A DNA stretch of 63,740 nucleotides, the filler included, from Anaerolineae bacterium (lineage in GTDB: Bacteria > Chloroflexota > Anaerolineae > Epilineales > Epilineaceae), in the NCBI GenBank assembly GCA_029262755.1. It is 8 parts of 8 records of this genome, joined end to end, with 100 filler letters (N's around TTAATTAATTAA, not from the genome) between each part and the next. Parts side by side here need not be neighbours in the genome. Positions count along the whole stretch, not along the records: positions 47,412 to 60,443 come from JAJCYU010000369.1; 7 more parts are not named here. One strand, 5' to 3'. The notes below the pieces were generated by a model, which searched no databases, had not been told where the DNA came from, and saw only the letters and a program-made list of their open reading frames with translations. Of the stretch, positions 39,983-60,543 are shown piece after piece. The translations under genes were made by a program, and so were the position numbers. The stretch's first letter is position 1. Every line of letters begins with the position of its first letter.

Positions 39983-40084
39983 GGGTGGAGATCTGCGCCT
40001 GGCAGATCTGCGATTGTTCATCGGTGCTGACCGCCCGGTCCAAACTGTGGGTCGATACTGTGGGTCGATCGCTCCGACCCCCGA

Positions 40085-40113
40085 ATTGTAGGCCCGTCCG
40101 CACACGCCTTCAA
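40085..40113 (-). promoter_or_regulatory. Sigma70-type promoter of the pan operon
   Basis: TTGAAG-N17-TACAAT on the minus strand. Confidence 0.75.
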
Positions 40114-40226
40114 GGCCGAGCGGCAGCCGTCTAGTGTACGATACCCGCCGCCTACCGGACGGTGTTCTTCTCTCCGCGAAGCACTGCGATCCCCGCACCC
40201 CGCACCCTGCGCCAGGAGCCTGGACG

Positions 40227-43425: not shown

Positions 43426-43570
43426 GTAAGGCTCAAGCGGAGGTTCCTGCCCCTCGCGATCGCCGAGTCTCCGGCGCCCAAACGGCGGGTTTTCCTAAGT
43501 CAACCGTTGGTCACGCCTAAGCTTTCACTCATCCTCGAGCCCCATCATGCCGTACGCACACGGTCCTCCT

Positions 43571-43636
43571 TGTGCAACTTCGATCCGGAATTCTCGTTTA
43601 CTGGGGCGGTGCGAGAGTTCCGGATCGGCTGTTAAC
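43571..43636. repeat. Palindromic intergenic repeat, copy 1
   Basis: TGTGCAA..GATCCGGAATTCTCG-loop-CGAGAGTTCCGGATC..GTTAAC. Confidence 0.85.
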
Positions 43637-43854
43637 GCGTAGACGTCGCGAACGTTCAAGGTCGCGAGCGCCTAACATCACGATCGCCCAACGTCGCGAC
43701 CCGCGTCCCACGACCCGCGACCGGCGACCGGCGACCCCAAACCCAGCGCAACGTCATCCCCGACACCACGCGCAGGCCTTCAGCGACCTCTTGGTCCTTG
43801 TTCAGGCTTCCCTCAGGCGGCGTGCCTATCCTGGGAACCAGTCACAGTTCTCCC

Positions 43855-43918
43855 TGTGCAAGTTGATCCGGATTTCTCGTTACTGGGGCGGTGCGAGAGG
43901 TCCGGATCGCTCGTTAAC
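43855..43918. repeat. Palindromic intergenic repeat, copy 2
   Basis: TGTGCAA..GATCCGGATTTCTCG-loop-CGAGAGGTCCGGATC..GTTAAC. Confidence 0.85.
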
Positions 43919-44131
43919 CGCCGAGCGAGTTGGTCAACGTCGCCGCACAACGCCCCGTGCAGCGTCGCCGCACAATCACCCCTCGCTGCGCAACTCCCCG
44001 TTGCAGCCCTCGCCGCGCAACCTCGCTGCAAGCATGATCGCCCTGCCTCCGTCCGACGCGCGAGGATCCCGCGACAACGTCGGAACGTTTGCGCGACGAA
44101 GGCTCGTCGCACGCGCACCCGGAGAACGATC

Positions 44132-46888
44132 ATGCTCCCGCTCCCGCTCCTGCACCCGTCCCCGCCCCGCCCCCGCCCCCGCCAACGCCCCCTGCGCCCA
44201 CGCCCCCACGGGCCCGCCATCGGCATCCTGCCTCCGATCCTCCTCGCCCTCGTCCTCGCGCTCCTCGCCGTACTCGCGCGCCCCGTCCCCGCGTCCGCGG
44301 ATGACCCCGCGCCCCCGTCGTTGGCCGGACCCGCGGCGCCCGCGCGGCTCGCGTTCTCTGTGCGTCCGCCGGGCGAGGCGCTCGACGCGCTCTCCGAGGT
44401 GCGCGACCTTGCGGTGGGGCCGGACGGGACGCTCTATGTGGCGGATCCGGGCGGGTGCCGCGTGATCCGGGTGGCGCCGGATGGCCGGACGCTCGGCGCT
44501 TGGGGCGGCTGCGGGCACGCGGACGGCCGGTTCTTCGTCCCATCCGCGCTGGCCGTCGCGCCGGACGGCAGGGTGGCCGTGGCGGATGCCGGGCTCGGCC
44601 GCATTCAGATCTTCGACGCGCGGGGGTCGTGGCTGCGCACGATCGACGCGCGCGGGATCGACTGTCGCCAAGCGCATGGAGTATGTCCGGCCCGGCCTTG
44701 GGACGGCCTACTCGGGCTCACCTTCGACCGGTCCGGCGACCTTCACGTGATCGACATGCTCCAGGAGCGCCGCCCATCCACGTTGCATGTGCGCACATGG
44801 GCGCGCATCGGCGCGGATGGCAGTGTGCAGGCGAAGGAGCAGCTGAGCTGGCAACCGACTTCGATCAAGCTCGCCAGCCTCACCACCACGCGCCGCGGAA
44901 CGCTGATGGGCCTCACGAATTCGGGCGCCATCATTCGCATCGTCCCGGGTTCGGGCGACGAACCGATGCTCACCCTTTCGCCGCGTCGCGTCACGTCGGA
45001 CCTGGACGTCGGCCCGGACGATGGCATCTGGGCCGTCGCGCATCGCGAGATCGTGCTGCACGATCCCACGGGCCGCGTTCGTCGTACGTGGCCCGTCGCC
45101 GAAACCGAGGGCTTCACCGCGGTGGCCGTGGCCCCAGACGGCACGGTCTACGCCGCGGCTACGCTCATCCGCGCTTCGCTGTTGGCATCGGTGGGTCAGG
45201 CGTTGGCGTCGACGCCGTCCGCCATTTGGCGGCTGAGGCCGGACGCGCTTGAAGAGGGGCCGGAGCCGTTCTGGGGCCGGCCGACTACGTCCGCAGCATC
45301 GCAGGCCATGTCGCTGCGCGCTGTCGCGGCGGGCGGCGGCCGTGTGCACTTGCTTCACAACGCTCGATACTGGGTGGACGCGACTTCGGGGGGCGGATCG
45401 CTTGTGCTGCCACCCCAGGTGGTGACACTCGACGCCGCCGGCCAGGAGATCGCCCAGTGGGGCGGCCGCGGCCTCGAGCCCGGCTCCTTCGCGTGGCTTC
45501 AGCGCTATAGCGGAGGCCCCAAGGGCCCGCTCGATCTCGCGGTGGGGCCGGACGGCGACGTGCATGTGGCCGACACGGAGGCCGACCGCGTCCAGCGCTT
45601 CGACCGCAACGGCCGGCTCAAGGGGCTTTCCACCCGGTCGGACTATGGCCCGCTCCCGCTCCCGATCGGCGTCGCGGTCGCGGACGACGGCACCGTGGCG
45701 GTCCTGAACGACCGACTGCGGATCTTCCGCTTCGGCCCCGATGGCGAGCCGTTTCCCACGACGCTCGACACATCGGACGTCCCTACGCTGGCGGGGTCAC
45801 CGCCGGAGTGGCATCCGCTCGCCATGACGCGCGACGGCAGCGCCGTGGACCTCGTGGCCTGGGGCTACAACAATTCGAACGAGTACCAATTCGTCGTGCG
45901 CCGGTCGTTGCACGACGGCGCGGAGCTCGCGCGGCGCAGGCTGCCCAACTTCAACGTAGGAATGAGCCCGCCAAGCAGCATGGCCATCGATCCATGGAGC
46001 GGGCCCGTGGTCATCGTAGACGGCCACATCCTCGCGGACGCGTCACCGGACGGCTGGCGCGCGGCGATCCCCGTGCAGCAGCCGCCGTACCAAGAGTATC
46101 CGATGCTGTCGATGGACCTGGACGAGAACGGCGACGCGTGGGTGGCGGGACTCGCGTATCGGAATATCGGACCTCAGAGCGACCAGGTGCCCGTGATACA
46201 ACGCCGGCTGCATCGCTACACCCGCGTCTGGCCGACCACGTGGCGCGCCGAACTCTCGGCCGACCCGCACTTCGGCGGCCGCCCCCTCGTCGTGACAATG
46301 ACCGAGGGCCTCGCCTTGGCGGAAGCGCCCGCTGCGATACTCGCCGACGGATCCGCTGACACGCCCGCCGAGATGTCCCGCGATGCGCTCACCCGTGCGC
46401 AATCCAGCGCCATCGCGGACGCGCTCGCCGCCACCTCCGCCGTGCGCTTCGAGCGCGTCCTTAGCGCCGCGGATCTCGCGCCGCCCGCACGTCCGGGCGA
46501 TCCGGACGACCCGGACGACCCGCCGGATCCTGCTGATCCATCCTCCGCCGCGTTGCGGGCCGCCGGGGGAACCTTCCGCTTCCACCTGCGCGTGGCCGGC
46601 GGCGCGCGCCTGTGGGTCGATGACGCGATCGTGGTCGACGATTGGGACGCGCCGCAGGTCGACGTCGCCCTCGACCGCTTCCTATCCGCCACGTGGGGCC
46701 ACCGCATCGTCGTAGAGGCGCGGACGGCGCCGGTGGAGGGCGCCGTCGCGCTCGACATCAGCCCGATCGGCGGCGCGCACCGCATCCACATTCCGATCGC
46801 CCACGGCGCGGGCCGTCTGGCCGACGCGCCGCCACCACCTCCGACACCGACCCCGTTGCCGGGATACCCAGGGCCCTCGGGTCCGTGA
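44132..46888 (+). CDS. Secreted NHL-repeat beta-propeller protein with a PA14-like C-terminal domain
   Basis: Hydrophobic N-terminus; LAVGPDGTLYVAD and DLAVGPDGDVHVADTEADRVQRF repeats; GTFRFHLRVAGGARLWVDDAIVVDDW (PA14-like). Confidence 0.8.
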   Translation: MLPLPLLHPSPPRPRPRQRPLRPRPHGPAIGILPPILLALVLALLAVLARPVPASADDPAPPSLAGPAAPARLAFSVRPPGEALDALSEVRDLAVGPDGTLYVADPGGCRVIRVAPDGRTLGAWGGCGHADGRFFVPSALAVAPDGRVAVADAGLGRIQIFDARGSWLRTIDARGIDCRQAHGVCPARPWDGLLGLTFDRSGDLHVIDMLQERRPSTLHVRTWARIGADGSVQAKEQLSWQPTSIKLASLTTTRRGTLMGLTNSGAIIRIVPGSGDEPMLTLSPRRVTSDLDVGPDDGIWAVAHREIVLHDPTGRVRRTWPVAETEGFTAVAVAPDGTVYAAATLIRASLLASVGQALASTPSAIWRLRPDALEEGPEPFWGRPTTSAASQAMSLRAVAAGGGRVHLLHNARYWVDATSGGGSLVLPPQVVTLDAAGQEIAQWGGRGLEPGSFAWLQRYSGGPKGPLDLAVGPDGDVHVADTEADRVQRFDRNGRLKGLSTRSDYGPLPLPIGVAVADDGTVAVLNDRLRIFRFGPDGEPFPTTLDTSDVPTLAGSPPEWHPLAMTRDGSAVDLVAWGYNNSNEYQFVVRRSLHDGAELARRRLPNFNVGMSPPSSMAIDPWSGPVVIVDGHILADASPDGWRAAIPVQQPPYQEYPMLSMDLDENGDAWVAGLAYRNIGPQSDQVPVIQRRLHRYTRVWPTTWRAELSADPHFGGRPLVVTMTEGLALAEAPAAILADGSADTPAEMSRDALTRAQSSAIADALAATSAVRFERVLSAADLAPPARPGDPDDPDDPPDPADPSSAALRAAGGTFRFHLRVAGGARLWVDDAIVVDDWDAPQVDVALDRFLSATWGHRIVVEARTAPVEGAVALDISPIGGAHRIHIPIAHGAGRLADAPPPPPTPTPLPGYPGPSGP

Positions 46889-47166
46889 GCGACACGATTG
46901 CGTTCCAATATCGCTCGCCAGCAACGGCCGACGACATTGCTCGCGACCACCGGTCGCCAGCACCGGTCGCCAGCACCGCTCGCAACTCGCCGCCTACCCG
47001 CGTGCTCGCGACGACGGTCGAGTCCGGGCGATTCATCGGCTGCTGTATCCTTCGCGCGTCCGTCGTGGTCGCCGCGCAACAAGCGACCTCGCGGGTCTTG
47101 GCAACCACCGTTGTCCGTCGCGACCTGAGTCGCCCGAGTTGCCCGAGCCCGCGAGACCCAAGCTAG

Positions 47167-47311
<145 letters not shown>

Positions 47312-47411
47312 NNNNNNNNNNNNNNNNNNNNNNNNNNNNNNNNNNNNNNNNNNNNTTAATTAATTAANNNNNNNNNNNNNNNNNNNNNNNNNNNNNNNNN
47401 NNNNNNNNNNN
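47312..47411. other. Artificial contig linker
   Basis: N44-TTAATTAATTAA-N44. Confidence 0.97.
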
Positions 47412-47801
47412 CGGGCGATCCCGTAGCCGAGGCCGTGCTGAGCTGGCTGGATGCGCGGATGCGGTAGGGGGGTGCGACGGCGCGGCGCGCTGGACCCGGC
47501 CCCCTGGATCACGCGGGGACCGCGAACCGCTCTCACCGCAGCTTGCCAAGGCTGTGGACCGTGTACTGCAAATTGTCACGGTTGGGATCGACGTGACGAG
47601 CCGCTGGATGAACCCTGACGAGCCGCTAAACGGATGCTGACGAGGGGCACGACAGCATCCGCCGAGCGGCTGTGCAAGCAGGTGGAATGAGGCGAACACG
47701 CACGAATGAGGCGGCTCCCCGCGAGGGAGAGCCGCCTCGGATCTCGTCGGTCGCGCGTCGTGGCGGCCGGAGCAGATCCGCTCCGCGCGCCGCGCTGCGC
47801 G

Positions 47802-48224
47802 CTAGGCCGCGAGATCCACCCCCGGCGGCAGCTCGACCGGGTCTTCCGGGTGCGCTTCGTCCCACATCGCGACGAGCTCGGCGGTGCTCAGGCCGATGTT
47901 CTCGCGCAGGACGACGTCGCCCTTGAATGCGCCCGGGGTGGCCAGCGCGTTGCGCAGCTCGGAGGCGGCGCGGATGTTGGGCCGCAGCCGGCCGTCGGTG
48001 CCCATGGAGACGCTGAAGCGCCCGACGCCGGGAAGGCTCACGGGGTGCCCCTCCAACAGGGCGATGCGAATCTGCTCGGCGAGGTCGTAGAGCACCATCT
48101 GCGCGATGGAGGTCTTGACCAACGAGCCGTGGGTCAGGCGCACCGTAAGGGTATCGAGACCGATGGTGTCCTTAGATGCGACGCGGGGTCGGAAGGCGGT
48201 GACGGCTTGAATCAACGTGGCCAT
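47802..48224 (-). CDS. HU/IHF-like DNA-binding domain protein (divergent type)
   Basis: AAGGAG RBS; LLEGHPVSLPGVGRFSV resembles the HU G..V.L.GFG.F motif. Confidence 0.7.
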   Translation of the reverse strand: MATLIQAVTAFRPRVASKDTIGLDTLTVRLTHGSLVKTSIAQMVLYDLAEQIRIALLEGHPVSLPGVGRFSVSMGTDGRLRPNIRAASELRNALATPGAFKGDVVLRENIGLSTAELVAMWDEAHPEDPVELPPGVDLAA

Positions 48225-48453
48225 AGCAATCTCCTTTCACGATCTAGAGGCCAAACAAGAAGGAAAAGCGGTCGGGGCGGTGGGTGAAGGGCGGTCCTGG
48301 TGGGGCGGATCTGGAGGGCGGGTGCGGGGCGGATTTGGGTAAGGAGGTTGAAGCGCTTCGGGGGAGGGAACGTGGCAGCAAGGCGAGCGGTTCCTCGTGT
48401 TTGATGAGGGTTTGGTGAGGGGGCGTAGGGGGGCGGGGAGGACGGGCGTGCCT

Positions 48454-49320
48454 TCAGGCGCGCGCGATGGTCACAACGCAGCCCGTGTGATCGCTCAACC
48501 GCCGGCCGTCCGCGTCACGGTTGCCGAAGCCCTCGACCGACGTGGCGCGCAGCCCGCCGGAAACGGCGAGGTGGTCGATCAGCGGCCGCGCCGGGTCGTC
48601 GTCCCGCGTCGCGGTGGCGCCGGCCGTCACGATGGACCACGGCGACGCGAAGACCTGTGCGAGCCGATCGGTAGGCGCGAGCGGCTGGCCCTTCGCGCGT
48701 GGTACGGTCTGGTTGAAGTCGCCGCCGGCGATGGTGGGGATCGAGGCGTCGGCAACGCTGTCGGCGAGGATGGGTGCGAGCGCGTCCAGGTAGGCCATAT
48801 GGTCCTGCCACGGCCGCCGGCGGACGGGGCTCCAGCGCACGCGAGCAAAGTGCCACGAGATGCACAGGCCGTGAACGCGCACAGGGCCGAGCACGGTCGT
48901 GGTGGTGCCGGAGACCATGCGGCCGGCGAGAACGGCGCGCGGGTCTTCGTGGTCGTCGGGGCCGAAGGTGGTGGCGGTACCGTCCGTGTCGCCGGATGCG
49001 CTTTCGTCGGTATGCGCACTCGGCAGGCTCAGCCGAAGCCGCTCAAACGCCGCGTAGTCTTCGACCTCCGTCCACGGCTCGCGGCTCCAGGCGAGCACGC
49101 GTCGCTCGGCCGGACGGAAATACGCGTCGGGCAGCGGCCGGGCGGTGATGACGTGCCCGCCCGGCGGCAAGAGCCCCGTCTCGCCCTCCGTGAGGAGCAC
49201 GATGTCCGGCGCATACCGGGCGAGGAACGCGGGGATGCGCGAGCCGGTGGGGCCGCGGGGGGACTTGCGCTCGGCGTTCCAGACGAGGATGCGGGGGGAA
49301 GGGCCCGGGCTCAAGGTCAT
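48454..49320 (-). CDS. Endonuclease/exonuclease/phosphatase (EEP) family protein
   Basis: ILVWN, PDIVLLTE, AGGDFN, IDHLAV, LSDH. Confidence 0.88.
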   Translation of the reverse strand: MTLSPGPSPRILVWNAERKSPRGPTGSRIPAFLARYAPDIVLLTEGETGLLPPGGHVITARPLPDAYFRPAERRVLAWSREPWTEVEDYAAFERLRLSLPSAHTDESASGDTDGTATTFGPDDHEDPRAVLAGRMVSGTTTTVLGPVRVHGLCISWHFARVRWSPVRRRPWQDHMAYLDALAPILADSVADASIPTIAGGDFNQTVPRAKGQPLAPTDRLAQVFASPWSIVTAGATATRDDDPARPLIDHLAVSGGLRATSVEGFGNRDADGRRLSDHTGCVVTIARA

Positions 49321-49467
49321 GGCAGATCGTCCTGGGGGAGGGCTGGAGTGCGTGCCCAGGATGTATGCTCCAGCGTGGCCGTGGAAGCGGCAGCGTGCCA
49401 TGCGCCTGCCATGCGCGTGCGATCGGCCCTGATGGGATCTTTCCGAGGAATCCGTGGAGCGCGAAGA

Positions 49468-50088
49468 ATGAGCAAGCCCCAGCGGCGGAATGCCGGCGAA
49501 CCCAGCGCGGTTGCGTCGCGCCGGTCGGAGCGCGTCGTGCTCATCGGGCCGATGAAGGCGGGCAAGACGACGGTCGGACGGCTGGTGGCCGAGCGGCTCG
49601 TGCTGCCTTTCGTGTCGCTGGACGAGCTGGAGCGGGACTATGTGATGGCGGCCGGCTTCGACGAGCAGCGCGCGGCTTTCATACGCGAGCGCGAGGGCGA
49701 CTGGGCGTGGTATGGGTACCGTCGCCGCTTCTTCATGGCCGCCGTCGAGCGTTTCTTGGCCGAGCACACAACGGGCGTTCTCGAGCTGGGAAGAGGCCAC
49801 CCGATCGTGCCGGACGCGGAGGATCAGGCGCGTATCGTCCGCGCGCTGGAGGCGGCGCGGCCCGTGGTGTTGCTGCTGCCCGCGCGTGACCGTGCCGAGT
49901 GCTTGCGCGTCCTACGCGCGCGCCAGCGTCCAGAACACCTGGCGCAGGGAGACTGGAACGAGGACTTCCTCGCGGACGACCGCTACGAGCGACTGGCAAC
50001 GCACGTGGTGTTGACCGAAGGACGCTCGGCGGAGACGGTTGCGGAGGTTGTGGTGGCGGTAGTGCGGGGTGGCGGCGCCGGAAGTTGA
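49468..50088 (+). CDS. Shikimate-kinase-like P-loop kinase
   Basis: VLIGPMKAGKTTVG, FVSLD, VLELGRG, YERLATHVV.T. Confidence 0.75.
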   Translation: MSKPQRRNAGEPSAVASRRSERVVLIGPMKAGKTTVGRLVAERLVLPFVSLDELERDYVMAAGFDEQRAAFIREREGDWAWYGYRRRFFMAAVERFLAEHTTGVLELGRGHPIVPDAEDQARIVRALEAARPVVLLLPARDRAECLRVLRARQRPEHLAQGDWNEDFLADDRYERLATHVVLTEGRSAETVAEVVVAVVRGGGAGS

Positions 50089-50173
50089 GGGATATTCTCG
50101 ATGAGAGACGCTGGGCGCATGCGCGCGCGATACGTAATGTGCGCTTCTCCGCACACCCCGTAGGAGGAACATC

Positions 50174-51133
50174 ATCGACCTCATTCACGACGTTCTCCGT
50201 CAGGTGCCGGGCTTCCGAACCGGACGACCATGGAAGAAATTCCTTGCATCGAGCGTGTATGGGTTTGTCGCCCTCCTCGTGCTAACCGGGGACGCGGTTG
50301 GATTCGTGCTTGGCGCCGGCTTGCTCTTCGGCTCAGCCCTCCTCACAAACTTCAAGGGACTGCGTGATCGTGTTCCGCTCGTCCGATCGAAGAATCTGTT
50401 CGGCAAGCTTAGCGGCTGGATCCTGCTTTTCTTTGGCGGGATGATCGCCTTGGGGGCGGTGGTGCCGGCCGTGCAGCCGGACGACGCGGCGTTGCAAGAC
50501 CCCATACGCGAGGCACGGACCGGTACAGACGAAGACGCTGTCAGCCCGTTGCTATCGAGTAAAGTGGACTCGGAAGATCAGGTCCCCGATGTGCCCCCAA
50601 CACAGCCGCCGGAGGTTGCTCCGACTGCGACTGATCGCCCTACCGAGACCGATGTGCCGCCTACTACCGCTCCTCCGACGGCCACCGTGTTGCCGGCTAC
50701 CGCGACGCCCGTGCCCCCGACGATCGCGCCGACCGAGCCACCGCCTCCGCCTCCGACCGACGTGCCACCGCAGCCGACAGCAGTGCCGCCTCCACCGGCG
50801 CCGGTGCCCGGCGTGGTCGTGATCTCGTACGTCTACTTTGATGGAGCCGTGTCTCGCACCGAGGATGATGAATACGCTCAGATCACCAATCAAGGTGGTA
50901 GCCCGGTGAATCTCGCCGGTTGGCGTCTGAATGCCGGGGATGACGGCCAGGACTTCCGGTTTCCAGGGTTTGACCTGGCACCTGGTCAATCCTGTCGCGT
51001 GTACACCAACGAACATCACCCTGAGTCGTGCGGTTTCAGCTTCGGCAGTGGCAAAGCACTCTGGAACAACAAGGGCGACTGTGGGCACCTGTACGATGCG
51101 CAGGGGCAAGAGGTCTCGTCGTACTGTTTTTGA
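50174..51133 (+). CDS. Membrane-anchored protein with a Pro/Thr stalk and C-terminal lamin-tail domain (start uncertain: ATC 50174 or GTG 50204)
   Basis: N-terminal TM helices; PT-rich linker; DEYAQITNQGGSPVNLAGWRL...LAPGQ...WNNKGD..LYD..G (LTD). Confidence 0.82.
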   Translation: MDLIHDVLRQVPGFRTGRPWKKFLASSVYGFVALLVLTGDAVGFVLGAGLLFGSALLTNFKGLRDRVPLVRSKNLFGKLSGWILLFFGGMIALGAVVPAVQPDDAALQDPIREARTGTDEDAVSPLLSSKVDSEDQVPDVPPTQPPEVAPTATDRPTETDVPPTTAPPTATVLPATATPVPPTIAPTEPPPPPPTDVPPQPTAVPPPPAPVPGVVVISYVYFDGAVSRTEDDEYAQITNQGGSPVNLAGWRLNAGDDGQDFRFPGFDLAPGQSCRVYTNEHHPESCGFSFGSGKALWNNKGDCGHLYDAQGQEVSSYCF

Positions 51134-51353
51134 GTCTAGGGACGGCGCGGGGGGTATGGCCGGCGTCCGAACCGCGGAACGGACAACTCTGAATGGCCAG
51201 GTCGCGCCAACAACAAAAGCTACTGGAGAGGGCTAAATCGTGCTGTTCGCGCTTGCTTCCACCGCGTGGGTGGGCGCTCTCCAGGCTCCTGAGCGGGCGA
51301 GAAAATGCGTCGGTGCCTTGGCAGCGACTGCCCCTGTAGCAAAGGACGGCAAG

Positions 51354-51911
51354 TTGGACGACCGCATAGTGTGCAGCCAATGTAAACGTTCTCTGGACGC
51401 CGAGAACGATTTCAACTGTTGCGGCTGGCTACATTGCCCCATCTGCGGTACAAGCGTCTCGTTCGACGGGGACTGCTGCCAGCACATTGTCGCATGGTCT
51501 TCCATGGTGGAAGGGGCTGGGCTACTGGTCGATTCGGGTCCTGTATCGGGCTTGGATTCGTTGATGACGTTCGAGGTCGATTTCAATGACCCACCTGAGT
51601 CGGTGAAGGGAGCCTTCCGTGGGCTATGGGTAGATCTTGATGGAAGCTACGAAGGGTGGGGAGAAATGCTCAATGACTTCCTTGAGCAACCGGCTGTGGA
51701 CTCCACTCTTGCTAGCCCGATCGTCTCGCAGATGTTCGAGCGAATTCGAGATGTGGCCGGCGTCGTGCTGCTAGAGCATTCCGAAGGGGCCCTTTGCGCG
51801 TTTGCGCCGGACGACAAGGTCTGCAAGTGCGTGGATTTGGTGGTGCGCGATGTCATGTCCGCCATCGAGAAAGGATTGCGAAGCGCCAGTGGGCGGCCGG
51901 CTCTGCGATGA
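51354..51911 (+). CDS. Hypothetical protein with an N-terminal Cys-rich putative Zn ribbon (start uncertain)
   Basis: CSQC, CCGWLHCPICG, CCQH; AAGGA before TTG 51354. Confidence 0.5.
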   Translation: MDDRIVCSQCKRSLDAENDFNCCGWLHCPICGTSVSFDGDCCQHIVAWSSMVEGAGLLVDSGPVSGLDSLMTFEVDFNDPPESVKGAFRGLWVDLDGSYEGWGEMLNDFLEQPAVDSTLASPIVSQMFERIRDVAGVVLLEHSEGALCAFAPDDKVCKCVDLVVRDVMSAIEKGLRSASGRPALR

Positions 51912-51938
51912 TTACGATCTTGTCTTTCTGGTGATCGA

Positions 51939-52094
51939 TTACACCCGCCTCTCCCATTCCGCATTCTTGAGTCGCCATTCATGCCTACCTCGCTGCCACT
52001 GAGAGAATAATGTCGCGAGAATGCTGAGCCCACCGCCTACCAGCGCGCCAATGATCACCATGACAATATCCTTGTCGATGGCAAACCCAAGCAC
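51939..52094 (-). CDS. Small (51 aa) single-TM ORF or truncated gene; below the ORF-track cutoff
   Basis: VLGFAIDKDIVMVIIGALVGGGLSILATLFSQWQRGRHEWRLKNAEWERRV*. Confidence 0.4.
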   Translation of the reverse strand: MLGFAIDKDIVMVIIGALVGGGLSILATLFSQWQRGRHEWRLKNAEWERRV

Positions 52095-52589
52095 ATCAAC
52101 AGCAATCTGCTGAGAAGCCTACAGTGGTATTCGTGGTCGTGCGCCAAGGAATTCCATCGTGTGGTCCGAGTCGGCGGCTATTCGCGTTAGAGAGAATAGT
52201 GAGGAGCGTTGTTCGCAGAGACGTACGTTATCGCGAACGTGGCGGTGGTGCGATCCGAAATGAACTCACCGCAAGATCACGGCGTTCCGATCGAGTCCCG
52301 ATCACCTGACGCCGCCCCCTCCCACCGCACCGACCGCCGGAAGTGTCCCGGCGCCCGATCCAATGACCGCCGATAGCTCAGCGTCGCATCGTTCACGCGC
52401 CAGAGTGCCCGCCGACGATCTCGCTACCGACTGAGCCCAACTGACTATGCGACCCATGAGCTCGCTCTCCACGCCTGCTGACAGATCCGCACGTGTCGGT
52501 CATGGCCGACGATCTCATGTCGACGCTCGGGCGACGGTTGAAAACGTCGGCGCCGAGGACAATGAAGCGATCGCCGGCAAGGCTAGTCC

Positions 52590-53120
52590 TCACCAGCAGA
52601 ACCAGGGGTTGGCAAGGTCGTCGATGCGGGGATCCTCGGTTAGTCGATGGCCCCTTGCGGCGAGAACGCGAAGGACCGCGTCTCTGGATGCGGCGGCGAT
52701 CGTGGCGTAGATGCCGTTGAGCCCCGTGGCTCCGAACGCTCCATGCGCATTCAGGACCTCCATGGGCACATCGTCATAGACAAGCGCCGCCAACGCCGGC
52801 GGCCAGTCCCCTTCTTCGAATGCCGTGATGTCGGACGTGCCGTCGAAGGGGGTGTCATCCGAAGGGGGTGCATCGTCAGGATTGCCGGGGTCCGCGTCAA
52901 GTGCGGAATCGAAGCCGCAGAGATCGCAAATCTCCGTGAACAGCTCCGGTGCTAGAGACGTGCGAAGCTCTCCCCATGTGGAGCACTCGAACACTTGATG
53001 CCGGGCAATCCAATGCTCAAGCGTATCGCGGCGCACGATGCCAAGCACCTGCTGGCCGTCCCATCGCTGCTCAATGACAGCCCAACAGAATTCGACGGGA
53101 CTGGTTGGGTCGTCGGCCAT
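52590..53120 (-). CDS. Hypothetical acidic protein, divergent from mcrB
   Basis: GGAGG RBS before ATG 53120; 176 aa with globular-like composition. Confidence 0.6.
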   Translation of the reverse strand: MADDPTSPVEFCWAVIEQRWDGQQVLGIVRRDTLEHWIARHQVFECSTWGELRTSLAPELFTEICDLCGFDSALDADPGNPDDAPPSDDTPFDGTSDITAFEEGDWPPALAALVYDDVPMEVLNAHGAFGATGLNGIYATIAAASRDAVLRVLAARGHRLTEDPRIDDLANPWFCW

Positions 53121-53259
53121 TCGTAGTCCTCCGGCGGATGAAGGCTGCCCGGACATCGTAAGCGCCGCAATGATCCAACTGCGACCGAGCGCATTGTACG
53201 TGCCCGTCTCCAGTTTCCCAGTACCATGTGTGTTCGCACTCATATCTGCCGGGCTATCA

Positions 53260-55710
53260 ATGCTGGAGCCAACTACCGTGAGCCTCGAATCCCAGTTCAA
53301 GACGCTGAAGGAACGCGAGATCGAGCAGCATCTCGAAGAGCACTTCGGCGCGATGGAGCCGCTCGGCACGCAGTACTACCAACTGGAGGACGGCCGGCGG
53401 CTCATGTTCTCCTATGCCAACGGCAACACCTGGTTCTCGGTGCGGGAGAAGTACCTCGAGGAGCGTCTGGCGGAGAACGACCTCTACCTCTTCGTCTGGA
53501 CGGACGAGGTGAACGAACGGATGTGGATTTTCGGGGTCCCGCTGGGCGAGATCGTCGCGGCCTTCGAGCGCGCGGAGCTGAGCCCGACCAAGAACCGGGG
53601 CTTCTACAACCTTCACTTGATGGACGAAACCGAAGACGGACACCGCTTCCGCCAGCTCGATCTAGACCTGGATCGCTATCTGATCCTGGAGACGGAATCG
53701 ACCCTCACCGGTCCGCGCTTGGGGCTTGACGACCCGCCCGATTCGATGAGGGATTCAGGACTGCCTGAAGACAAGCTGCGGAGGCTCCTCCGGTGGGGAT
53801 TGGAGGGCAGAGCGGACCAAGGGGACAACTTCGACTTCGTGATGGTGCGGCGAAGATTGGCGGCCATTCAGCCCGTGCTGGAGCTCCTCTCGTCCAAAGA
53901 GGAAGAATTTACAGAGGCCGGATTGCAGACAGTGCTCGAGAGCGTCCATTCCGCGCAGAGGCAGAAAACCAACATCCTGCGCCACAACACGATCGAGGAC
54001 GTGCGTAGCGAGCTGTCGACCTTCCTGACCGACCACTATAAGCCGGTCGAGAAGCGCATCGGCGAGCTCAAACTGAAACATGTGGGCAAGTCCATTGCCG
54101 GCGAGTTGGTGGCTTGGCATGACCCGGAGCGCTATCCCCTGCACAACGGGTGCGCCGAAGAAGGGCTGCGCTTCTTCGGATACGATCCCGGCCAGGACTA
54201 CGCAGACTTCCGTGAGGCGTTTCTTCAGTTCCGCGGCGTGTATGAGGCCACTGTGGGACGACTTCACGCGGATGTACCCATCAACATGGAGATCGATCAG
54301 CTCTTCAATCAGGTACACAAGGGCGACCTTCGTCAGAACGACGAAGAGCCCGCTGGTCGTGCAGCTCGCGCATGGCGCATCACCTTGCCGGACCAGAAAG
54401 AGTACGGGACCGTGTGGCCGACATGCTTGGAGCAGGGAATCGCAGCCGTGGGCCTAGCGGAGGTCGACCCTGACAACTGGCAATTGCGCGAGTTCTCCTC
54501 GATCCGACCCGGCGACTGGGTCGTGGCCTTCCTGCGTCAGAAGCGCATTGGAGGCATTGGACGCGTGCTGGAAGCCTACGATCTTGACAGCGAACTGGAG
54601 ATTCCGCCGGCCGAAGACTATTGGGACGGCAAGTTCCTCCGCCGCCTTCGCGTAGAGTGGTTCGAGCGCGAACTCTCCGTAGAAAGCCTTTCGCCGTCCG
54701 CGCGCAACCGCTTCTTCGGCGGTACGGTGCAGACGATTCCAGCAGCGGACTTCGACGAGATTCGCAGTCACTTCCCGGAGACACTGGAGTCCGACGACCC
54801 AGATGCAGACGTGGCGGATGCGGTCGAATACACCGTGGACGACTTCCTCCGCAACGCCTATCAGGCTGATCGCCGGCGGCACGATGAGGTCACGGAGCTG
54901 CTCCGCGAGAAGGGGCAGGTGGTCTTCTATGGCCCGCCCGGCACGGGCAAGACATTCCTGGCGCGGGAGCTGGCCAAATCGCTGATCGGCACGGCGCGAC
55001 CGGAAGAGAGCCGGTTGCAGATCGTGCAGTTCCACCCCGCATACAGCTACGAAGAGTTTATCGAGGGCATCCGGCCCGAGAGCAAGGAACACGATGGACG
55101 CAGGATGGTCGAGTATCCCATTCGATCCGGCTCCTTCGCCCAGTTCTGCCGCAACGCCGAGGAACAGGACGGCCCGTGTGTCTTCGTGATCGACGAGATC
55201 AATCGCGGCAACATCGCCAGCATCTTCGGCGAGCTCATGTACGCCTTGGAATACCGTGATGACGCGGCACTTGTGCGCCTTCCCTACTCCGGCAAGACAT
55301 TCAGAATCCCCAGGAACGTGTACATCATCGGCACGATGAACACAGCCGATCGCTCCATCTCCCTGATGGACTTCGCCCTGCGGCGGCGATTCCACTTCAT
55401 TCGCTGCCCGGCCGACGTCGGGATCCTGGAACGTTGGGTGGAACGGAACGAGCCGGACATGCCCTATCTGCTGCCCTACTTCAGGCTTCTCAAAGAGACC
55501 ATCGACGAAGAGGACTACCAGATCGGCGTCAGCTACTTCATGGACCAGGCCTTGACGGAGGAACGCCTGCGGCGCATCTGGCGACGGAGCATCGAGCCCT
55601 ACCTGGAGACTTATTTCGTCGGGGACCCCGGCCGCATGGCCGAGCTTCGCTGGGACAGTCCGCGCATGAAGCGACTGCGCCGGCCGGATGTACCGTCCAG
55701 CGATGGATGA
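53260..55710 (+). CDS. mcrB: McrB-family AAA+ GTPase with three N-terminal modules
   Basis: GPPGTGKT (54931), VQFHPAYSYEEFIEG, IDEINRG, MNTADRS signature, ALRRRF. Confidence 0.93.
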   Translation: MLEPTTVSLESQFKTLKEREIEQHLEEHFGAMEPLGTQYYQLEDGRRLMFSYANGNTWFSVREKYLEERLAENDLYLFVWTDEVNERMWIFGVPLGEIVAAFERAELSPTKNRGFYNLHLMDETEDGHRFRQLDLDLDRYLILETESTLTGPRLGLDDPPDSMRDSGLPEDKLRRLLRWGLEGRADQGDNFDFVMVRRRLAAIQPVLELLSSKEEEFTEAGLQTVLESVHSAQRQKTNILRHNTIEDVRSELSTFLTDHYKPVEKRIGELKLKHVGKSIAGELVAWHDPERYPLHNGCAEEGLRFFGYDPGQDYADFREAFLQFRGVYEATVGRLHADVPINMEIDQLFNQVHKGDLRQNDEEPAGRAARAWRITLPDQKEYGTVWPTCLEQGIAAVGLAEVDPDNWQLREFSSIRPGDWVVAFLRQKRIGGIGRVLEAYDLDSELEIPPAEDYWDGKFLRRLRVEWFERELSVESLSPSARNRFFGGTVQTIPAADFDEIRSHFPETLESDDPDADVADAVEYTVDDFLRNAYQADRRRHDEVTELLREKGQVVFYGPPGTGKTFLARELAKSLIGTARPEESRLQIVQFHPAYSYEEFIEGIRPESKEHDGRRMVEYPIRSGSFAQFCRNAEEQDGPCVFVIDEINRGNIASIFGELMYALEYRDDAALVRLPYSGKTFRIPRNVYIIGTMNTADRSISLMDFALRRRFHFIRCPADVGILERWVERNEPDMPYLLPYFRLLKETIDEEDYQIGVSYFMDQALTEERLRRIWRRSIEPYLETYFVGDPGRMAELRWDSPRMKRLRRPDVPSSDG

Positions 55711-56956
55711 GGTCGCGCGGGTCATCCGGATGGTCGAGTACCGCAAGAGCAGCGCGCCCGTCGCCTTGCCCCGGGACGAGGCGGAGACGATCGCGGAGCG
55801 TTTGTCCAAGTACCTCCGGATCGACCCGGCTTGGGAGGCGCCCGGAACGTACTGGCTGACGGCACGCCAGTTCATCGGCGACCTGGTTATCGGGACTACG
55901 CACATCCACATTCGATCCGCGAAGGCCCCGCTGCCCAACGTGATGTGGATGCTCGGCTACGTGGGCAATCTCGCGCACTTCCGACACGACCTTCGAGCCT
56001 ACGACAAAGACGTTGGACTGCTGGAGTACCTGGTCGCGGCCTTCGCCTCGCAGGTAGAGAACCTGGAGCGGCACGGGCTTCACCGCGCCTACGTGCAGCA
56101 TCGCGGCGACCAATCCAGGCTGCGCGGCCGACTCGACCTGCTGCGGCACGTGCGCGGACAGATCGTTCACCCGGAGCGCTTCGCCGTGCGCTGGTCTCAG
56201 CACACGGCCGACGTTGCGGAGAACCAGCTGCTGAAGCATGTACTTATCTCGCTGGCCGGGATTCGCTACCGCTCGATCCCGCGACTCCGGCAACGCGTGC
56301 ACCACATCGTGCGCGCGTTCGATCACGTGGAGTACGTACCGATCGCTGAGCGCGACTTTGATGCTGTTCGCTTCCACCCGTTGAATCGGCACTACGAAGG
56401 GCCCTTGGCCCTGGCTCGCCTACTGTGGCGTCACCTGCATGTTCGATTCTCGCAAGGCAGCGTGCCGTTCGCCACCTTCCTGGTCGACCTCAACCGGCTC
56501 TTCGAGGCCTTCATCGCTGCCTACCTGTCCAGCTACCTGCGAAGGATCGATGCTGCCTCCGAGCTTCGCGCCATCCCCCAATACACCCTGACCCTCGATG
56601 AGAAGGGATTGGAGCAAGCCTACGTAGATATTGTGCTTGCCGAAGGCGAGCACGATGTCCTGGCCGTCGACACGAAGTTCAAGAAGTACAAGGACGGCCC
56701 CGCCAGGGCGGATCTCTATCAGATGTATACCTACTGCCGGGCTCTCGGTATCCAGTCCGGAATTCTCTTGTACCCCGCGGCAAGCTCGATTCGCGATGCA
56801 CGGCACATTCGGGGCGTCGCGGTCCGTGCACGCTCGGTCTGGCTCGGCGGAACGACCGACGACCTCGAGCGGAACATGAAGGAGATGGCGCGCGAGTTGT
56901 GCGAAGAAGCGGAGCTGCAGCGGGTGTACCTACGAGCGGCGCATAGCAATGCCTAG
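55703..56956 (+). CDS. mcrC: McrC-family PD-(D/E)XK restriction nuclease subunit
   Basis: Overlaps the mcrB stop; GL...Y, LRGRLD, ENQLLK, DLNRLFEAFI, VDI...DTKFK, DLYQMYTY. Confidence 0.92.
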   Translation: MDEVARVIRMVEYRKSSAPVALPRDEAETIAERLSKYLRIDPAWEAPGTYWLTARQFIGDLVIGTTHIHIRSAKAPLPNVMWMLGYVGNLAHFRHDLRAYDKDVGLLEYLVAAFASQVENLERHGLHRAYVQHRGDQSRLRGRLDLLRHVRGQIVHPERFAVRWSQHTADVAENQLLKHVLISLAGIRYRSIPRLRQRVHHIVRAFDHVEYVPIAERDFDAVRFHPLNRHYEGPLALARLLWRHLHVRFSQGSVPFATFLVDLNRLFEAFIAAYLSSYLRRIDAASELRAIPQYTLTLDEKGLEQAYVDIVLAEGEHDVLAVDTKFKKYKDGPARADLYQMYTYCRALGIQSGILLYPAASSIRDARHIRGVAVRARSVWLGGTTDDLERNMKEMARELCEEAELQRVYLRAAHSNA

Positions 56957-57056
56957 CGCAAGGTCATTGGTGATGGTACGGTGAGAATCGTCTAGTTTTC
57001 ATTGAGCAATCGCATATGAATGCGAGTTGACGGCTCGTTTCGCGAGGTGGTGTTCT

Positions 57057-59612
57057 ATGTCCTACAACAGCCTGACCATCTCATCCGCCATGCGACAGAT
57101 CCGTGATGGGCAACTTTTGTTGCCGGCAATCCAGCGCGATTTCGTTTGGTCGTCTGATCGCATCTACTTGTTCCTCGACTCGCTCATGCGCGGCTATCCG
57201 GTGGGCACCTTGCTGTTCTGGAACACACGCCAGCGGGTTCAGTACCGCGCCTTCGAGTCGTCCTGGACGGACACCATTCGCCATACGTTCAGGGTCAAAC
57301 CCAACGGCCAGCCCGGTACATTGGTGCTCGACGGTCAGCAGCGGCTGCAGTCGCTCTATCTTGCCTTGGAAGGCGAGCGAGATCGGGCCCGTCTCTTTTT
57401 CGACGTGCTCAGTGGCTCCTCCGGTCGCAACGGCGCTGAAGAGCTCCATGGCTTCGAATTCCTGACGGACGAGGCAGCCGCGAAGCGTAACCAGGAGTCG
57501 GATACAGAAGGCTATTGGGTGCCTTTGAGTGAGATATACGGATGCCAGGGCATACCGCAGCGCCGGCATCTGGTCGGTCGCTACTCGGAGGCCGCGGGAA
57601 TCGACGACAGCGCACGTATAGCGGTGATCGACATCAACGTCGACACGGCCTTCTCCAAGCTCAAGGCCGAGCCGGTACTGAACCACTACACCATTGATCA
57701 GAACTACGGTGATGATGCGGCGGTGACGCCTATCAATGAGATCCTCGAGATCTTCGTGCGAATCAATTCCGGGGGCGAGGTGCTCAGCAAGAGCGACTTG
57801 ATGTTTTCGCTGATGCAGCTCGGCTGGGAAGGGGCTTCCGATAGCATCGACGATCTTATTGAGGACCTGAACAGCAAGGGGCGGTTCGATTTCAGCAAGG
57901 ACTTCGTACTTCGTTGCGCACTGGTTTGTTGCGGCCGCGGGGCGCGCTATAGCGTCGACCGGCTCCGCGAGGGAGAGACGATCGAGCAGATCGAGAAAGA
58001 GTTTCCGACGATAGCCACGGCGCTACGAAGCACCGTCGACTTTCTCGTCGAGCACGCCAGAATTCTCGACGGACGCGTGCTTGGTTCCTACAACAGTCTC
58101 GTTCCCTTCACCTATTACTTCTACTTGAATGGAGGCAAGCGGCCACGGGGAGAGGAGAACTCCCAGTCGATCAAGCACGCGATGTACCTCGCGCTTCTCT
58201 CGTCGGCCTTCTCCCGGCACGCCGACAGCCGAACGAACGGCGTGACCCGATACACGCTCATGCCGGCGCATGCTGCCGACCCGGGTGAGTTCCCGCTCGA
58301 CGGCTTCCGAGAGTTCATTCGTCAACGCACCGGCCACGACCGAATCGACAATGCACTGCTACAGCGCAACCCGATGCTTCTGATGAACATACTCGAGCGA
58401 GGAGTGCTTCTCCCCATCGGCAAGCGCCGGCATCGTCCGGAGGTCGATCATATCTTCCCGCAGAAGGGCTTGCGCGACCGAGGATATAGCCGGCAGATGA
58501 TGGACGACTTCGCGAATCTTCGGCTGGTGTCCAAGGAGGACAACATCTGGAAGCGCGACCAGGATCCAGGCACGTACTTCGCGCAGCATCCCGGCACGAT
58601 GGGCGACTACCTGATTCCGGAAGAACTGCTCGACTACGATGCCTACGAAGGCTTTCTGCGTGCTCGCCGCAAGCGGATCTGGCGGAGCGTTCAGGATTTT
58701 CTCGGGATTCCGGACGAGCTCGTCCCGCAAGACGATCGTTTAGCGCCAGGGGAAGAGAACGCGGCCTTGGATGCATTCGAGAAACGCTTTCGCACTCTGC
58801 TGGACACGGTGTTGCTGGAGGCGGTCGGCGCAGACTATTGGGCGCGCGTGGTGCCGTCCGGCTTGGCCGAGCGGGTCGACCGGCATGTGGCCGCCGCGCT
58901 GAAGCGGGAGCCGGGCAAGACGGAGGCGGACTTTGCCGCAGGCCGTGCCCGCCTTCCATTGTGCGACCTCGGCGGCTACGAGTCGATCGTAAGCAAGAAG
59001 GCGAATTGGCCCTACTTCGAGCACGTTTTCAGGAGCCGTGAGGACTTTCTAAGGCATATGACAGCCGTCCGCGAACTGCGCAACGCGGTCAAGCACTTAC
59101 GCGAGCCCAGCCTTGTCGAGCGGCTCAACGGCGAAGCAGGCCTCGTTTGGCTGGGTGATTCCATCGATGCAGCGATCGGCAACGATGGCGCCGCGCGTGC
59201 GTCGAACCCAGCCGCGATGGACCTCGCGGACGGCGAGGATGATGTGCCTACCATCGATGACTACGTCCGGTTGCTGACGCGCAGGGGAGTCCCACGCGGC
59301 CAACAACAGCTCTACCGCGAGCTGTATGCAGCGGGAGACGTTGGGGTCAGCCCGGATGATCTCGTAGCGCAAATGCCGCGGCGGGACCGCAAGGACTTGG
59401 GTGGGGTCATCGGCGCTTTCGGCACCCGAATCAATTACACCCCCGGTTACTGCAAACGGACGAAGCCAGGAATCGGCTTCGCGCTAGAGTGGTTTCAACC
59501 GATTGGCGACGACGCCGACGCCGATCCCCGGTATCGACTGCGCCCGCTCATGAGGGAGGCGCTCAAGAAGCTGGACCCAGAGTGGCTGGGTTCGGGGGGT
59601 AGTGCGGAGTGA
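57057..59612 (+). CDS. GmrSD-type (DUF262 + DUF1524/HNH) nuclease fused to a Swt1-like HEPN domain and a C-terminal wHTH-like domain
   Basis: LPAIQRDFVW, DSLMRGYPVG, LDGQQR, FVRINSGG; EVDHIFP..FANL..N; FEKRFR...NWPYFEHVF...RNAVKH (RxxxxH at 59079-59096); GAGGTGG RBS. Confidence 0.88.
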   Translation: MSYNSLTISSAMRQIRDGQLLLPAIQRDFVWSSDRIYLFLDSLMRGYPVGTLLFWNTRQRVQYRAFESSWTDTIRHTFRVKPNGQPGTLVLDGQQRLQSLYLALEGERDRARLFFDVLSGSSGRNGAEELHGFEFLTDEAAAKRNQESDTEGYWVPLSEIYGCQGIPQRRHLVGRYSEAAGIDDSARIAVIDINVDTAFSKLKAEPVLNHYTIDQNYGDDAAVTPINEILEIFVRINSGGEVLSKSDLMFSLMQLGWEGASDSIDDLIEDLNSKGRFDFSKDFVLRCALVCCGRGARYSVDRLREGETIEQIEKEFPTIATALRSTVDFLVEHARILDGRVLGSYNSLVPFTYYFYLNGGKRPRGEENSQSIKHAMYLALLSSAFSRHADSRTNGVTRYTLMPAHAADPGEFPLDGFREFIRQRTGHDRIDNALLQRNPMLLMNILERGVLLPIGKRRHRPEVDHIFPQKGLRDRGYSRQMMDDFANLRLVSKEDNIWKRDQDPGTYFAQHPGTMGDYLIPEELLDYDAYEGFLRARRKRIWRSVQDFLGIPDELVPQDDRLAPGEENAALDAFEKRFRTLLDTVLLEAVGADYWARVVPSGLAERVDRHVAAALKREPGKTEADFAAGRARLPLCDLGGYESIVSKKANWPYFEHVFRSREDFLRHMTAVRELRNAVKHLREPSLVERLNGEAGLVWLGDSIDAAIGNDGAARASNPAAMDLADGEDDVPTIDDYVRLLTRRGVPRGQQQLYRELYAAGDVGVSPDDLVAQMPRRDRKDLGGVIGAFGTRINYTPGYCKRTKPGIGFALEWFQPIGDDADADPRYRLRPLMREALKKLDPEWLGSGGSAE

Positions 59613-59715
59613 TGCCCACGGTGAGCCATTCGACGAATCTTGCTGCGCGGAGTGGATGATCCGGATTGGAGCAAGGCCGAATTCATGTTGGGCAATGCCG
59701 AGAACCGAGTCGCGA

Positions 59716-60443
59716 TTACCCCCCCCCGCCACCCGCCGCCCGCCGCCCGATCCGCTCCACCACCGCCGCCAGCCCCATCGCCGCCCCTTCGCGGCGGGCC
59801 GCCTCGTGCTCGGGCCCGTCCAGTGCGGACAGCGTGTTCGTGGCGTCCTCGGGCGCGAGGTCGAGCACGCCCTCGGAGGCGCCCACGATCCACGCGGCCT
59901 CGTCGGTCCAGACTAGGTCGAGGTAGACGGCGGCGAGGGCGGCCAACGCGAGATCGTCTCTATCGTCTTGCGTATTCGTCGACTGCGTAGGGAGGATCAC
60001 CTCCAGGCAGGAAAGCAGCGGTGCCGGCGCGTCTCGTGGCCGGCCGAGGCGCTGGAGCGCGGCTCCCTCCAAGGCCTCCACCTTCGCGGCCTCGGGGCGG
60101 ATGCCCGCGCTCGTGAAGACGTCGCGCGCGGGCCGCGCATGCTCGACGACGCCCGGCCAGTCCCCGGTCAGCCAGCAGGTCTGGGCGATCATGGCCAACG
60201 ATTCGCCCAGATACTCCTTGTGACCGACGTCCTGGAAGCAACGTGCCGCCTCGTGGAACGCAGACTTCGCCGCTGGGAAGCCGCCTCGCATCATGTGCAG
60301 GTAGCCCATTGCCGAGAGGCAGGCTCCCCGCACGAGCACGTCCGGGTGCTCGGACTCGCTCTGAAGCGACGGCTGCAGCCAACGATCGGCCTCGTGCATG
60401 GCAGCGTTCTGCACGGCGCGCATGCCCGCCATCTGCAGCGCGA
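59716..60443 (-). CDS. C-terminal TPR-like region of a large regulator/ATPase (5' part lost)
   Basis: Helical TPR-like repeats; AAWIVGASE and AARREGAAMGLAAVV tail typical of STAND/LuxR-type proteins. Confidence 0.6.
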
Positions 60444-60543
60444 NNNNNNNNNNNNNNNNNNNNNNNNNNNNNNNNNNNNNNNNNNNNTTAATTAATTAAN
60501 NNNNNNNNNNNNNNNNNNNNNNNNNNNNNNNNNNNNNNNNNNN
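60444..60543. other. Artificial contig linker
   Basis: N44-TTAATTAATTAA-N44. Confidence 0.97.

Follow-up and report, generated by a model that had tools for sequence, protein, structure and literature searches.

Three co-directional open reading frames (ORFs), which together occupy positions 53038-59612 of the window (the whole 63,740-nucleotide stretch of DNA analysed here, made of contigs of a metagenome-assembled genome of an Anaerolineae bacterium, GCA_029262755.1, chained end to end), probably represent two independent type IV restriction modules that adjoin one another as genes in a defence island do, and not an obligate three-gene machine. The first module is an McrBC pair, consisting of an mcrB-like gene (53278-55710, 810 aa) and an overlapping mcrC (55688-56956, 422 aa). 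The second is a gene of 851 aa (57057-59612) whose predicted product is a single-chain BrxU-like GmrSD enzyme followed by a probable HEPN domain and a C-terminal winged helix-turn-helix (wHTH). Coordinates are window positions throughout, and the three genes and their domains lie on the plus strand. Family profiles, motifs and folds agree that both are type IV-type modules, as the original prediction had proposed from sequence, and the gene elements on which it relied (the overlap of mcrB with mcrC, the third gene and its motifs) were all found where it had placed them. Since each has significant family matches and homologues, we take mcrB, mcrC and the 851-aa gene to be real genes and not chance ORFs of GC-rich DNA. 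All three lie on contig JAJCYU010000369.1 (13,032 bp; window positions 47412-60443) of an assembly of 428 contigs that is 84% complete, and this contig carries both the one McrC match and the one GmrSD_N match of the whole assembly.

The original prediction had gone further and joined the three genes into a single layered cassette, with recurrent linkage to mcrBC in other genomes as its own test, and this linkage was not recovered in the comparisons that follow. Neither McrB nor McrC was present among the ORFs scanned near the full-length homologues of the 851-aa protein with readable flanks (0/3 loci). The McrC family PF10117 had no match in the two genomes that hold two of these loci, L082 and L083 (0/2), and at related DUF262 loci no McrB or McrC was detected by tblastn, by an McrB-GTPase profile or by phmmer with McrC (0/164); for 115 of these 164 foreign loci, the flank on one or the other side reaches 3.5 kb or more. 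With the GTPase domain of the window McrB as query, one of the two homologue genomes returned nothing and the other a weak, generic AAA match on a different contig (E = 3.5e-4, 26% identity), and the search of the same two genomes with PF09823 (DUF2357) was uninformative, its control having matched nowhere. The neighbours at the three homologue loci differ in each case, with a PLD-SNF2 helicase and a type ISP-like methylase at one, DUF4145, Schlafen and NACHT proteins at another, and an Eco57I-type methylase and Mrr at the remaining one. Furthermore, the sizes of the longest contigs recorded for the 5 McrB homologues never coincide with those recorded for the 18 GmrSD-HEPN homologues, and the own-genome entries are both 13032. 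No orthologue of the 851-aa gene was found in 40 related genomes (0/40), the best match reaching 31% identity over the core only. As a separate observation, a 408-aa ORF without a Pfam match (L083:3619-4845) stops 2 bases short of the GmrSD-HEPN-wHTH gene at its locus, and could be a partner gene.

Several points weigh against the independence of the two modules. Flanks could be read for 3 of the 18 full-length homologues (L082, L083 and L086) and for none of the McrB homologues (0/5); the PF10117 control was positive in just 2 of the 14 genomes named as controls, E. coli not being one of the positives, and the model may therefore miss some McrC types; and the completeness of the two McrC-less genomes is not given. 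In addition, the three genes are co-directional, with a gap of exactly 100 nt before the third, as predicted, with no detectable terminator in that gap and with a low GC content common to both modules, so that they may have been co-acquired and may be co-transcribed. These features, together with the Chloroflexota/Anaerolineae labels of the closest relatives of both modules, speak for mcrB, mcrC and the GmrSD-HEPN-wHTH gene as one layered system, in which the HEPN RNase would be a suicide backup for both restriction activities. We nevertheless regard such a system as improbable, given that the arrangement recurs in none of the homologue loci, homologue genomes or related loci, that the two sets of homologues share no longest-contig sizes, and that the ATG of the third gene (57057) is preceded by a separate ribosome-binding site (GAGGTGG). 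In the spacer between mcrC and this gene (56957-57056, 100 nt, without strand) a scan with a crude E. coli-type consensus, which is unsuited to this host, detected neither a terminator-like nor a sigma-70-like site, and its sites were no more numerous than in shuffled sequences. The spacer does contain a short palindrome, TCGCAT-N4-ATGCGA (57010-57025), which may be due to chance; nothing similar lies upstream of the L082 or L086 homologues.

The 851-aa protein can be assigned to the GmrSD family from its sequence with some assurance, in line with the original prediction, which had read the third gene as GmrSD-like and had listed DUF262, an HNH motif (DHIFP), RNAVKH and a further C-terminal domain in it, all of which were located. 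The BrxU-like core (57075-58703) comprises a DUF262 NTPase domain, a linker and an HNH/DUF1524 domain. It matches the PADLOC model HEC-05 at 2.7e-84 over residues 7-559 of the protein (P0003), the model being covered to position 593 of 600, and GmrSD_N (PF03235) at 7e-25 (88.7 bits against a cut-off of 33.2). Its sole solved relative by sequence is the BrxU structure (PDB 7p9k_A, 6.2e-25), to which sequence similarity is detectable over residues 7-356 only. The authors who described the PADLOC candidates regard HEC-05 as essentially BrxU and give the BrxU motifs as RLFDS, DGQQR and DHIYP (bioRxiv 10.1101/2024.01.29.577857); the corresponding motifs here are FLDS (57171-57182), DGQQR (57330-57344) and DHIFP (58446-58460), and DGQQR is invariant in 18/18 aligned sequences. 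The Pfam matches of the nuclease half are weaker, HNH_4 scoring 15.4 bits (under its cut-off of 22) and GmrSD_C being matched by only 6/18 homologues at E<=1. A DUF262 domain with DGQQR, a DUF1524/HNH domain with DH(I)(Y/F)P and a relation to the BrxU structure are thus all present in the predicted protein. We found no ABC ATPase domain in the 851-aa protein, the N-terminus of which is DUF262/HNH. We also noted a weak PADLOC match to PD-T4-2_A (1.5e-4) over residues 22-62, the DUF262 motif region.

Downstream of this core lies a predicted Swt1-like HEPN domain (58746-59186) with the motif RNAVKH (59079-59096). We consider this assignment probable, as it draws on converging, individually modest lines (sub-threshold Pfam matches, a transitive link, the fold and the conservation of the motif), none of which is decisive alone. 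HEPN_Swt1 (PF18731) is matched by 15/18 full-length homologues at E<=1, all of them below the cut-off of 27.5 bits, with a best score of 23.3 bits. A profile built from the C-terminal 288 residues retrieved 2,209 representative proteins at E<=1e-3; one of these, P0240 (7.5e-25 with this profile), reaches 30.7 bits with PF18731, above the cut-off, thereby providing the transitive link, and another profile-found protein passes the cut-off of the related HEPN_SAV2148. A structural model of the HEPN-wHTH module was obtained with a predicted local distance difference test (pLDDT) score of 87, and when its residues 1-179 were used for a fold search with VIA-align, the best matches of the HEPN part were all HEPN proteins, namely AbiF (8vz6, Z 8.6, 144 residues aligned), the yeast Swt1 C-terminal domain (4pqz, Z 7.1, 109 aligned) and AbiA (8oz7, Z 6.7). 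Two results count against the assignment: the window protein itself has no Pfam HEPN match even at E<=10, and the fold Z values of 6.7-8.6 are all below the level at which the tool is trusted for helical bundles. Foldseek retrieved no structure at E<=1e-3 for the C-terminal model, a PDB profile search with the C-terminal alignment gave chance-level ubiquitin matches only (E 0.05-0.6), and a Pfam scan of the C-terminal pieces gave no useful match.

The motif itself is conserved throughout the family. All close homologues (19/19) keep R, N and H of RNxxxH unchanged, other columns of the HEPN region being invariant among them too, and the motif is present in 121/124 profile-selected representatives that cover it; a count of 84/84 in the fetched loci is circular, the locus scan having used the motif as its search pattern. 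Of the original proposal of a HEPN RNase in the third gene, the intact RNxxxH stands, and proves to be conserved family-wide, while the HEPN identity is probable. The conservation bears on whether the HEPN-like domain might be non-catalytic, serving for dimerisation or as a spacer that binds nucleotides or nucleic acid and separates the HNH domain from the winged helix. The sub-threshold Pfam matches, the eukaryotic Swt1 HEPN domains that are thought to be inactive (PMC3710099) and the existence of a HEPN-less sister clade, in which the domain is dispensable for the core, all fit such a role; invariant R, N and H, the other invariant HEPN columns and the scoring of DUF262+HNH fusions as 'active' in the 2013 survey (PMC3710099) argue for a catalytic domain, and we judge a non-catalytic role very unlikely. 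A homodimer prediction of the HEPN-wHTH module returned a score of 0.01, which gives no verdict.

About 170 residues extend beyond the HEPN region of the 851-aa protein, the last ~120 of which (59244-59594) are predicted to adopt a winged helix fold. The extra C-terminal domain of the original prediction is thus most readily modelled as a wHTH, with pLDDT values mostly of 85-95. VIA-align matched it to the wHTH domain of Csa3 (6wxq, Z 8.2), to PagR (2zkz, Z 7.9) and to members of the MarR/ArsR family at Z ~7; Foldseek returned weak MarR/wH matches only (E 0.16-1). In the model, helices span residues 170-245 and are followed by strands at 247-250 and 262-265, consistent with the three-helix bundle and beta-hairpin wing that characterise such domains.

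The HEPN-wHTH tail is a rare sub-architecture, and its distribution indicates how the parts relate to each other. Among the 120 best homologues, 19 carry HEPN and wHTH, 17 have this wHTH joined straight to the core and 84 carry neither. We then inferred a tree from 74 cores (quick search, midpoint root; 8/82 were left out for want of the HNH pattern or the N-terminus), and when its members were classed by tail size 22 had another tail of ~140 residues, the remainder of the class with neither domain being core only. The HEPN+wHTH forms are basal in a clade of 65 members, and the HEPN-less forms without exception fall in a nested clade of 47 members with a Shimodaira-Hasegawa-like approximate likelihood ratio test value of 100, which indicates that the core works with or without HEPN. 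An insertion of HEPN into an ancestor that had the core and the wHTH was also considered; the tree points the other way, the HEPN+wHTH form being basal and the nested clade having lost HEPN. The BrxU-like clade (P0023-P0070) shows four tail states, namely HEPN+wHTH, wHTH alone, a third domain of ~140 residues and nothing. This third tail, for which an alignment was made, is unrelated to the others and has no Pfam match.

The same HEPN domain also occurs in other settings, among proteins P0132-P0272. It is carried by distant DUF262 (GmrSD_N) proteins that also bear DUF5655, DUF4268, DUF4357, EVE or Mrr_N domains, and further fusion partners are an AAA_35 ATPase, a dynamin-like GTPase and a DndB-like protein. 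We also observed it on proteins with sigma-70 region 4 and HhH motifs, and one of the distant proteins, P0132, combines GmrSD_N, HEPN, wHTH and DUF4268. Its occurrence on such varied partners, together with its absence from the sister clade, suggests that the HEPN domain is an exchangeable accessory of restriction-type enzymes. The wHTH, by contrast, is common to the HEPN-less sisters, which suggests that it is part of the enzyme itself and not specific to HEPN.

On this basis a working model can be sketched for the 851-aa protein, in which we infer all activities, the role of the RNase and its trigger from the families concerned. By analogy with BrxU, the core would cleave modified-cytosine DNA in a nucleoside triphosphate (NTP)-dependent cycle. 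The winged helix, which the HEPN-less sisters also have, most likely binds nucleic acid for the whole enzyme. The HEPN domain is most likely a conditionally active RNase that would provide a second line of defence at the RNA level in cases where the DNase is engaged or has been blocked. The outcome could be growth arrest, suicide or the cutting of phage transcripts, among which the sequence does not distinguish. One specific version would have HEPN target the virus directly, as an RNase that cleaves phage transcripts close to the DNA which the core and the wHTH have recognised, the cell surviving. Attack on viral RNA is a documented HEPN mode, with RNase LS and LsoA cited as examples (PMC3710099), the RNxxxH motif is conserved, and a covalent fusion to a DNA-recognising enzyme would position the RNase at phage DNA; the sequence, however, gives no distinction from self-directed cleavage, and where HEPN is joined to a restriction nuclease, self-directed action has been inferred (PMC3710099). 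We consider this version unlikely. A further elaboration starts from the ATP-dependent dimer-to-monomer shift and the promiscuous nucleotide use of BrxU (PMC8565348). In it, the 851-aa protein would be a switchable dual nuclease in which a BrxU-type, NTP-driven dimer-monomer cycle controls the pairing of the two HEPN domains, so that a molecule bound to suspect DNA by its core and winged helix, yet stalled in cleavage, turns into an RNase, and the neighbouring EVE-McrBC would share in the decision, making a true three-gene unit; this seems to us highly doubtful.

The upstream module has the sequence features of an McrBC system, combining an McrB-type AAA+ GTPase that has the family motifs with a separate downstream McrC that has a predicted N-terminal McrB-activating domain and a putative PD-(D/E)xK nuclease. 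The start of mcrC lies within the end of mcrB, the two genes sharing 23 nt (8 nt with the alternative start, ATG 55703), which bears out the overlap that had been noted at the outset. McrC matches the Pfam family McrBC (PF10117) at 6.1e-44 (150.7 bits against a cut-off of 23.9) and the NCBIfam model McrC at 3.4e-28, below its cut-off, and the PD-DxK nuclease motif D314...D328-T-K330 lies at 56621-56683. A locus search of species genomes with McrC as the sole query found no relatives. The mcrB reading frame is open from 53038 to 55710, with start candidates at GTG 53278 and, six codons upstream, ATG 53260. The gene was where the original prediction had put it, but the ATG 53260 start chosen there gives way to GTG 53278, which is the database gene model and the position at which the N-termini of five homologues align best.

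The C-terminal part of McrB (54823-55710) is the AAA+ GTPase domain, with a Walker A motif (GPPGTGKT, 54931-54954), a Walker B motif (VIDEINR, 55186-55206) and NxxD (NTAD, 55339-55350), the last being the signature that defines McrB GTPases in the McrBC census (PMC11090510). The C-terminal third matches Pfam AAA_5 at 1.1e-18, and the protein matches NCBIfam McrB at 1.2e-40 (139.6 bits, under the equivalog cut-off of 637). A Pfam scan of the N-terminal pieces gave no useful match, and the first 500 residues were modelled from a six-sequence alignment (pLDDT 84.5). In this model, residues 360-500 (54355-54777) form a putative modified-base reader of the EVE/YTH/ASCH type (PUA-like). VIA-align matched it to PH1033 (1wmm, Z 13.3), YTHDC1 (Z 12.0), VcaM4I (6yex, Z 11.6), THYN1 bound to DNA with 5-methylcytosine (5j3e, Z 10.0) and the N-terminal domains of archaeal McrB proteins (6n0s, Z 9.3; 6p0g, Z 8.2). 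Foldseek gave 30 matches at E<=1e-3 (4.7e-5 quoted), of which those listed are EVE/YTH-type domains and VcaM4I, and the ESM Atlas placed the region with DUF8426/EVE clusters at 0.90. The modelled EVE/YTH fold is accordingly what would be expected of a specificity domain for modified bases. In a more recent release of Pfam, parts of proteins of this kind are named PF28529 and PF28530 (DUF8426).

The regions ahead of the reader are leads rather than assignments. Residues 1-140 (53278-53697) may adopt a PD-(D/E)xK restriction-endonuclease-like fold, since VIA-align matched the model to NhoI (8q5n, Z 8.6), PvuII (1ni0, Z 7.6) and DpnI (4esj, Z 7.1), all moderate values; D68, D76 and E77 are conserved, and the canonical Lys position has no conserved Lys. 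Residues ~160-355 (53755-54342) form an all-helical domain in the model, with a weak likeness to HhH-GPD DNA glycosylases (3n0u at Z 7.1, others at Z 4.6-5.2) that is below the level at which the tool is trusted for helical folds. This build of McrB is rare, with only 5 other 90%-identity clusters among 5.8 billion proteins and no relatives of the window McrB alignment in 185,579 species genomes, and the N-terminus is a rare sub-architecture. There are no coiled coils in McrB, which is hence not a CoCoNuT. McrB is translationally coupled to McrC (DUF2357 plus the PD-DxK nuclease). By analogy with E. coli McrBC, the reader would find modified bases, the GTPase ring would translocate DNA and McrC would cut.

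The surroundings of the three genes are those of a short contig within a chained window. The runs of N around the ttaattaattaa linker begin at 60444 (60444-60543), so that the genes past 60443 (TrmD and peptidases) belong to another contig and are no neighbours of the cassette. On the other side, the preceding contig (C368) occupies 32287-47311, its junction with JAJCYU010000369.1 lies near 47312-47411, and gene adjacency across this junction is artificial. The GC content is 0.67-0.72 at 47.4-49.8 kb compared with 0.56-0.65 from ~51 to 58.8 kb, and the lower-GC stretch with the three genes is probably acquired DNA. No methyltransferase was present among the ORFs scanned on this 13-kb contig, as had been stated, although this says little for so short a contig, which breaks off soon after the genes. 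Nor did the ORFs scanned include hsd or mod/res genes of type I or III restriction-modification systems, and no BREX genes lie on the contig. PF00145 (C5-cytosine methylase) had no match in the 84%-complete genome, which is compatible with modified cytosines as restriction targets and proves nothing. At the edge of the lower-GC stretch, an ORF at 50204-51133 encodes a lamin-tail domain (LTD; 3.2e-17) and weakly matches (5.1e-7) the PADLOC candidate 'SNc+LTD' in its LTD part.

PrrC, encoded with EcoprrI, and RloC are anticodon nucleases restrained by restriction systems, in which an ABC ATPase is joined to HEPN and which lie within or beside type I/III restriction-modification loci. The logic is common to these systems and the 851-aa protein, in that a HEPN RNase coupled to DNA restriction could fire when restriction is blocked; in the window protein, however, HEPN and a type IV nuclease are parts of one polypeptide, with neither an ABC ATPase nor a methylase. 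We rejected membership of the PrrC/RloC family, in view of the missing ABC ATPase and of the missing type I/III locus on the short contig, and the likeness is one of analogy only. A PrrC-like release of the RNase upon neutralised restriction was already proposed in 2013 for fusions of HEPN with restriction nucleases (PMC3710099). The same survey lists, in its Table 1, a fusion of a Swt1-like HEPN with ParB (DUF262) and HNH, with VNG7073 as prototype, which has the same domain combination and order class as the window protein and is scored 'active' (PMC3710099). Compared by description, the VNG7073-type fusion as catalogued there is not listed with the C-terminal winged helix that is present here.

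Comparison with other known systems gives a similar picture. The window protein resembles BrxU, a GmrSD-family enzyme from the defence island of the Escherichia fergusonii plasmid pEFER (PDB 7p9k; PMC8565348), over ~560 N-terminal residues, sharing DUF262 with FLDS-type and DGQQR motifs, the linker, the HNH domain with DH(I)(F/Y)P and surroundings of defence genes. BrxU, however, has 587 aa and ends after HNH, whereas the window protein adds ~290 residues of HEPN and wHTH. Co-located complementary defence systems are a theme of the BrxU paper (PMC8565348). PD-T4-2, an experimentally found anti-phage system, combines a DUF262/ParB-like NTPase with HEPN, as the window protein does; according to a review (PMC10952713), it consists of two separate proteins, has no DUF1524/HNH and has its HEPN under a different Pfam family, PF18735. 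The likeness is limited to the DUF262 motif region. The window McrBC has in common with E. coli K-12 McrBC and with EVE-McrB fusions the McrB GTPase motifs, an mcrB upstream of and overlapping mcrC, and a PD-DxK McrC (PMC11090510). With the EVE-McrB fusions it also shares a predicted N-terminal specificity module of the EVE superfamily, and McrB is the most frequent fusion partner of EVE domains (PMC11090510). The reader of E. coli McrB is ADAM/DUF3578, whereas that of the window McrB is EVE/YTH-like and is preceded by ~355 residues (the nuclease-fold-like and helical regions). The literature searched, which did not extend to papers in subscription journals, yielded neither an experimental study of any GmrSD-HEPN fusion nor an experimental test of the proposed role of HEPN on a restriction nuclease.

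Every part of the locus thus belongs to a known family, and the class of fusion and the logic proposed for it are already published; what is particular here is that two rare sub-architectures stand side by side. If two independent type IV modules are indeed what the locus encodes, it would be an ordinary defence island, one more case of two well-known type IV families together with a fusion catalogued in 2013. The rare build of McrB may interest those who classify the specificity modules of McrBC systems. The clade of the 851-aa protein supplies natural controls, in which the same core occurs with HEPN and wHTH, with wHTH only or with nothing, and the existence of such HEPN-less sister proteins makes it a useful test bed. 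With it, the published hypothesis of restriction first, and RNase if restriction fails, would become testable with a single polypeptide.

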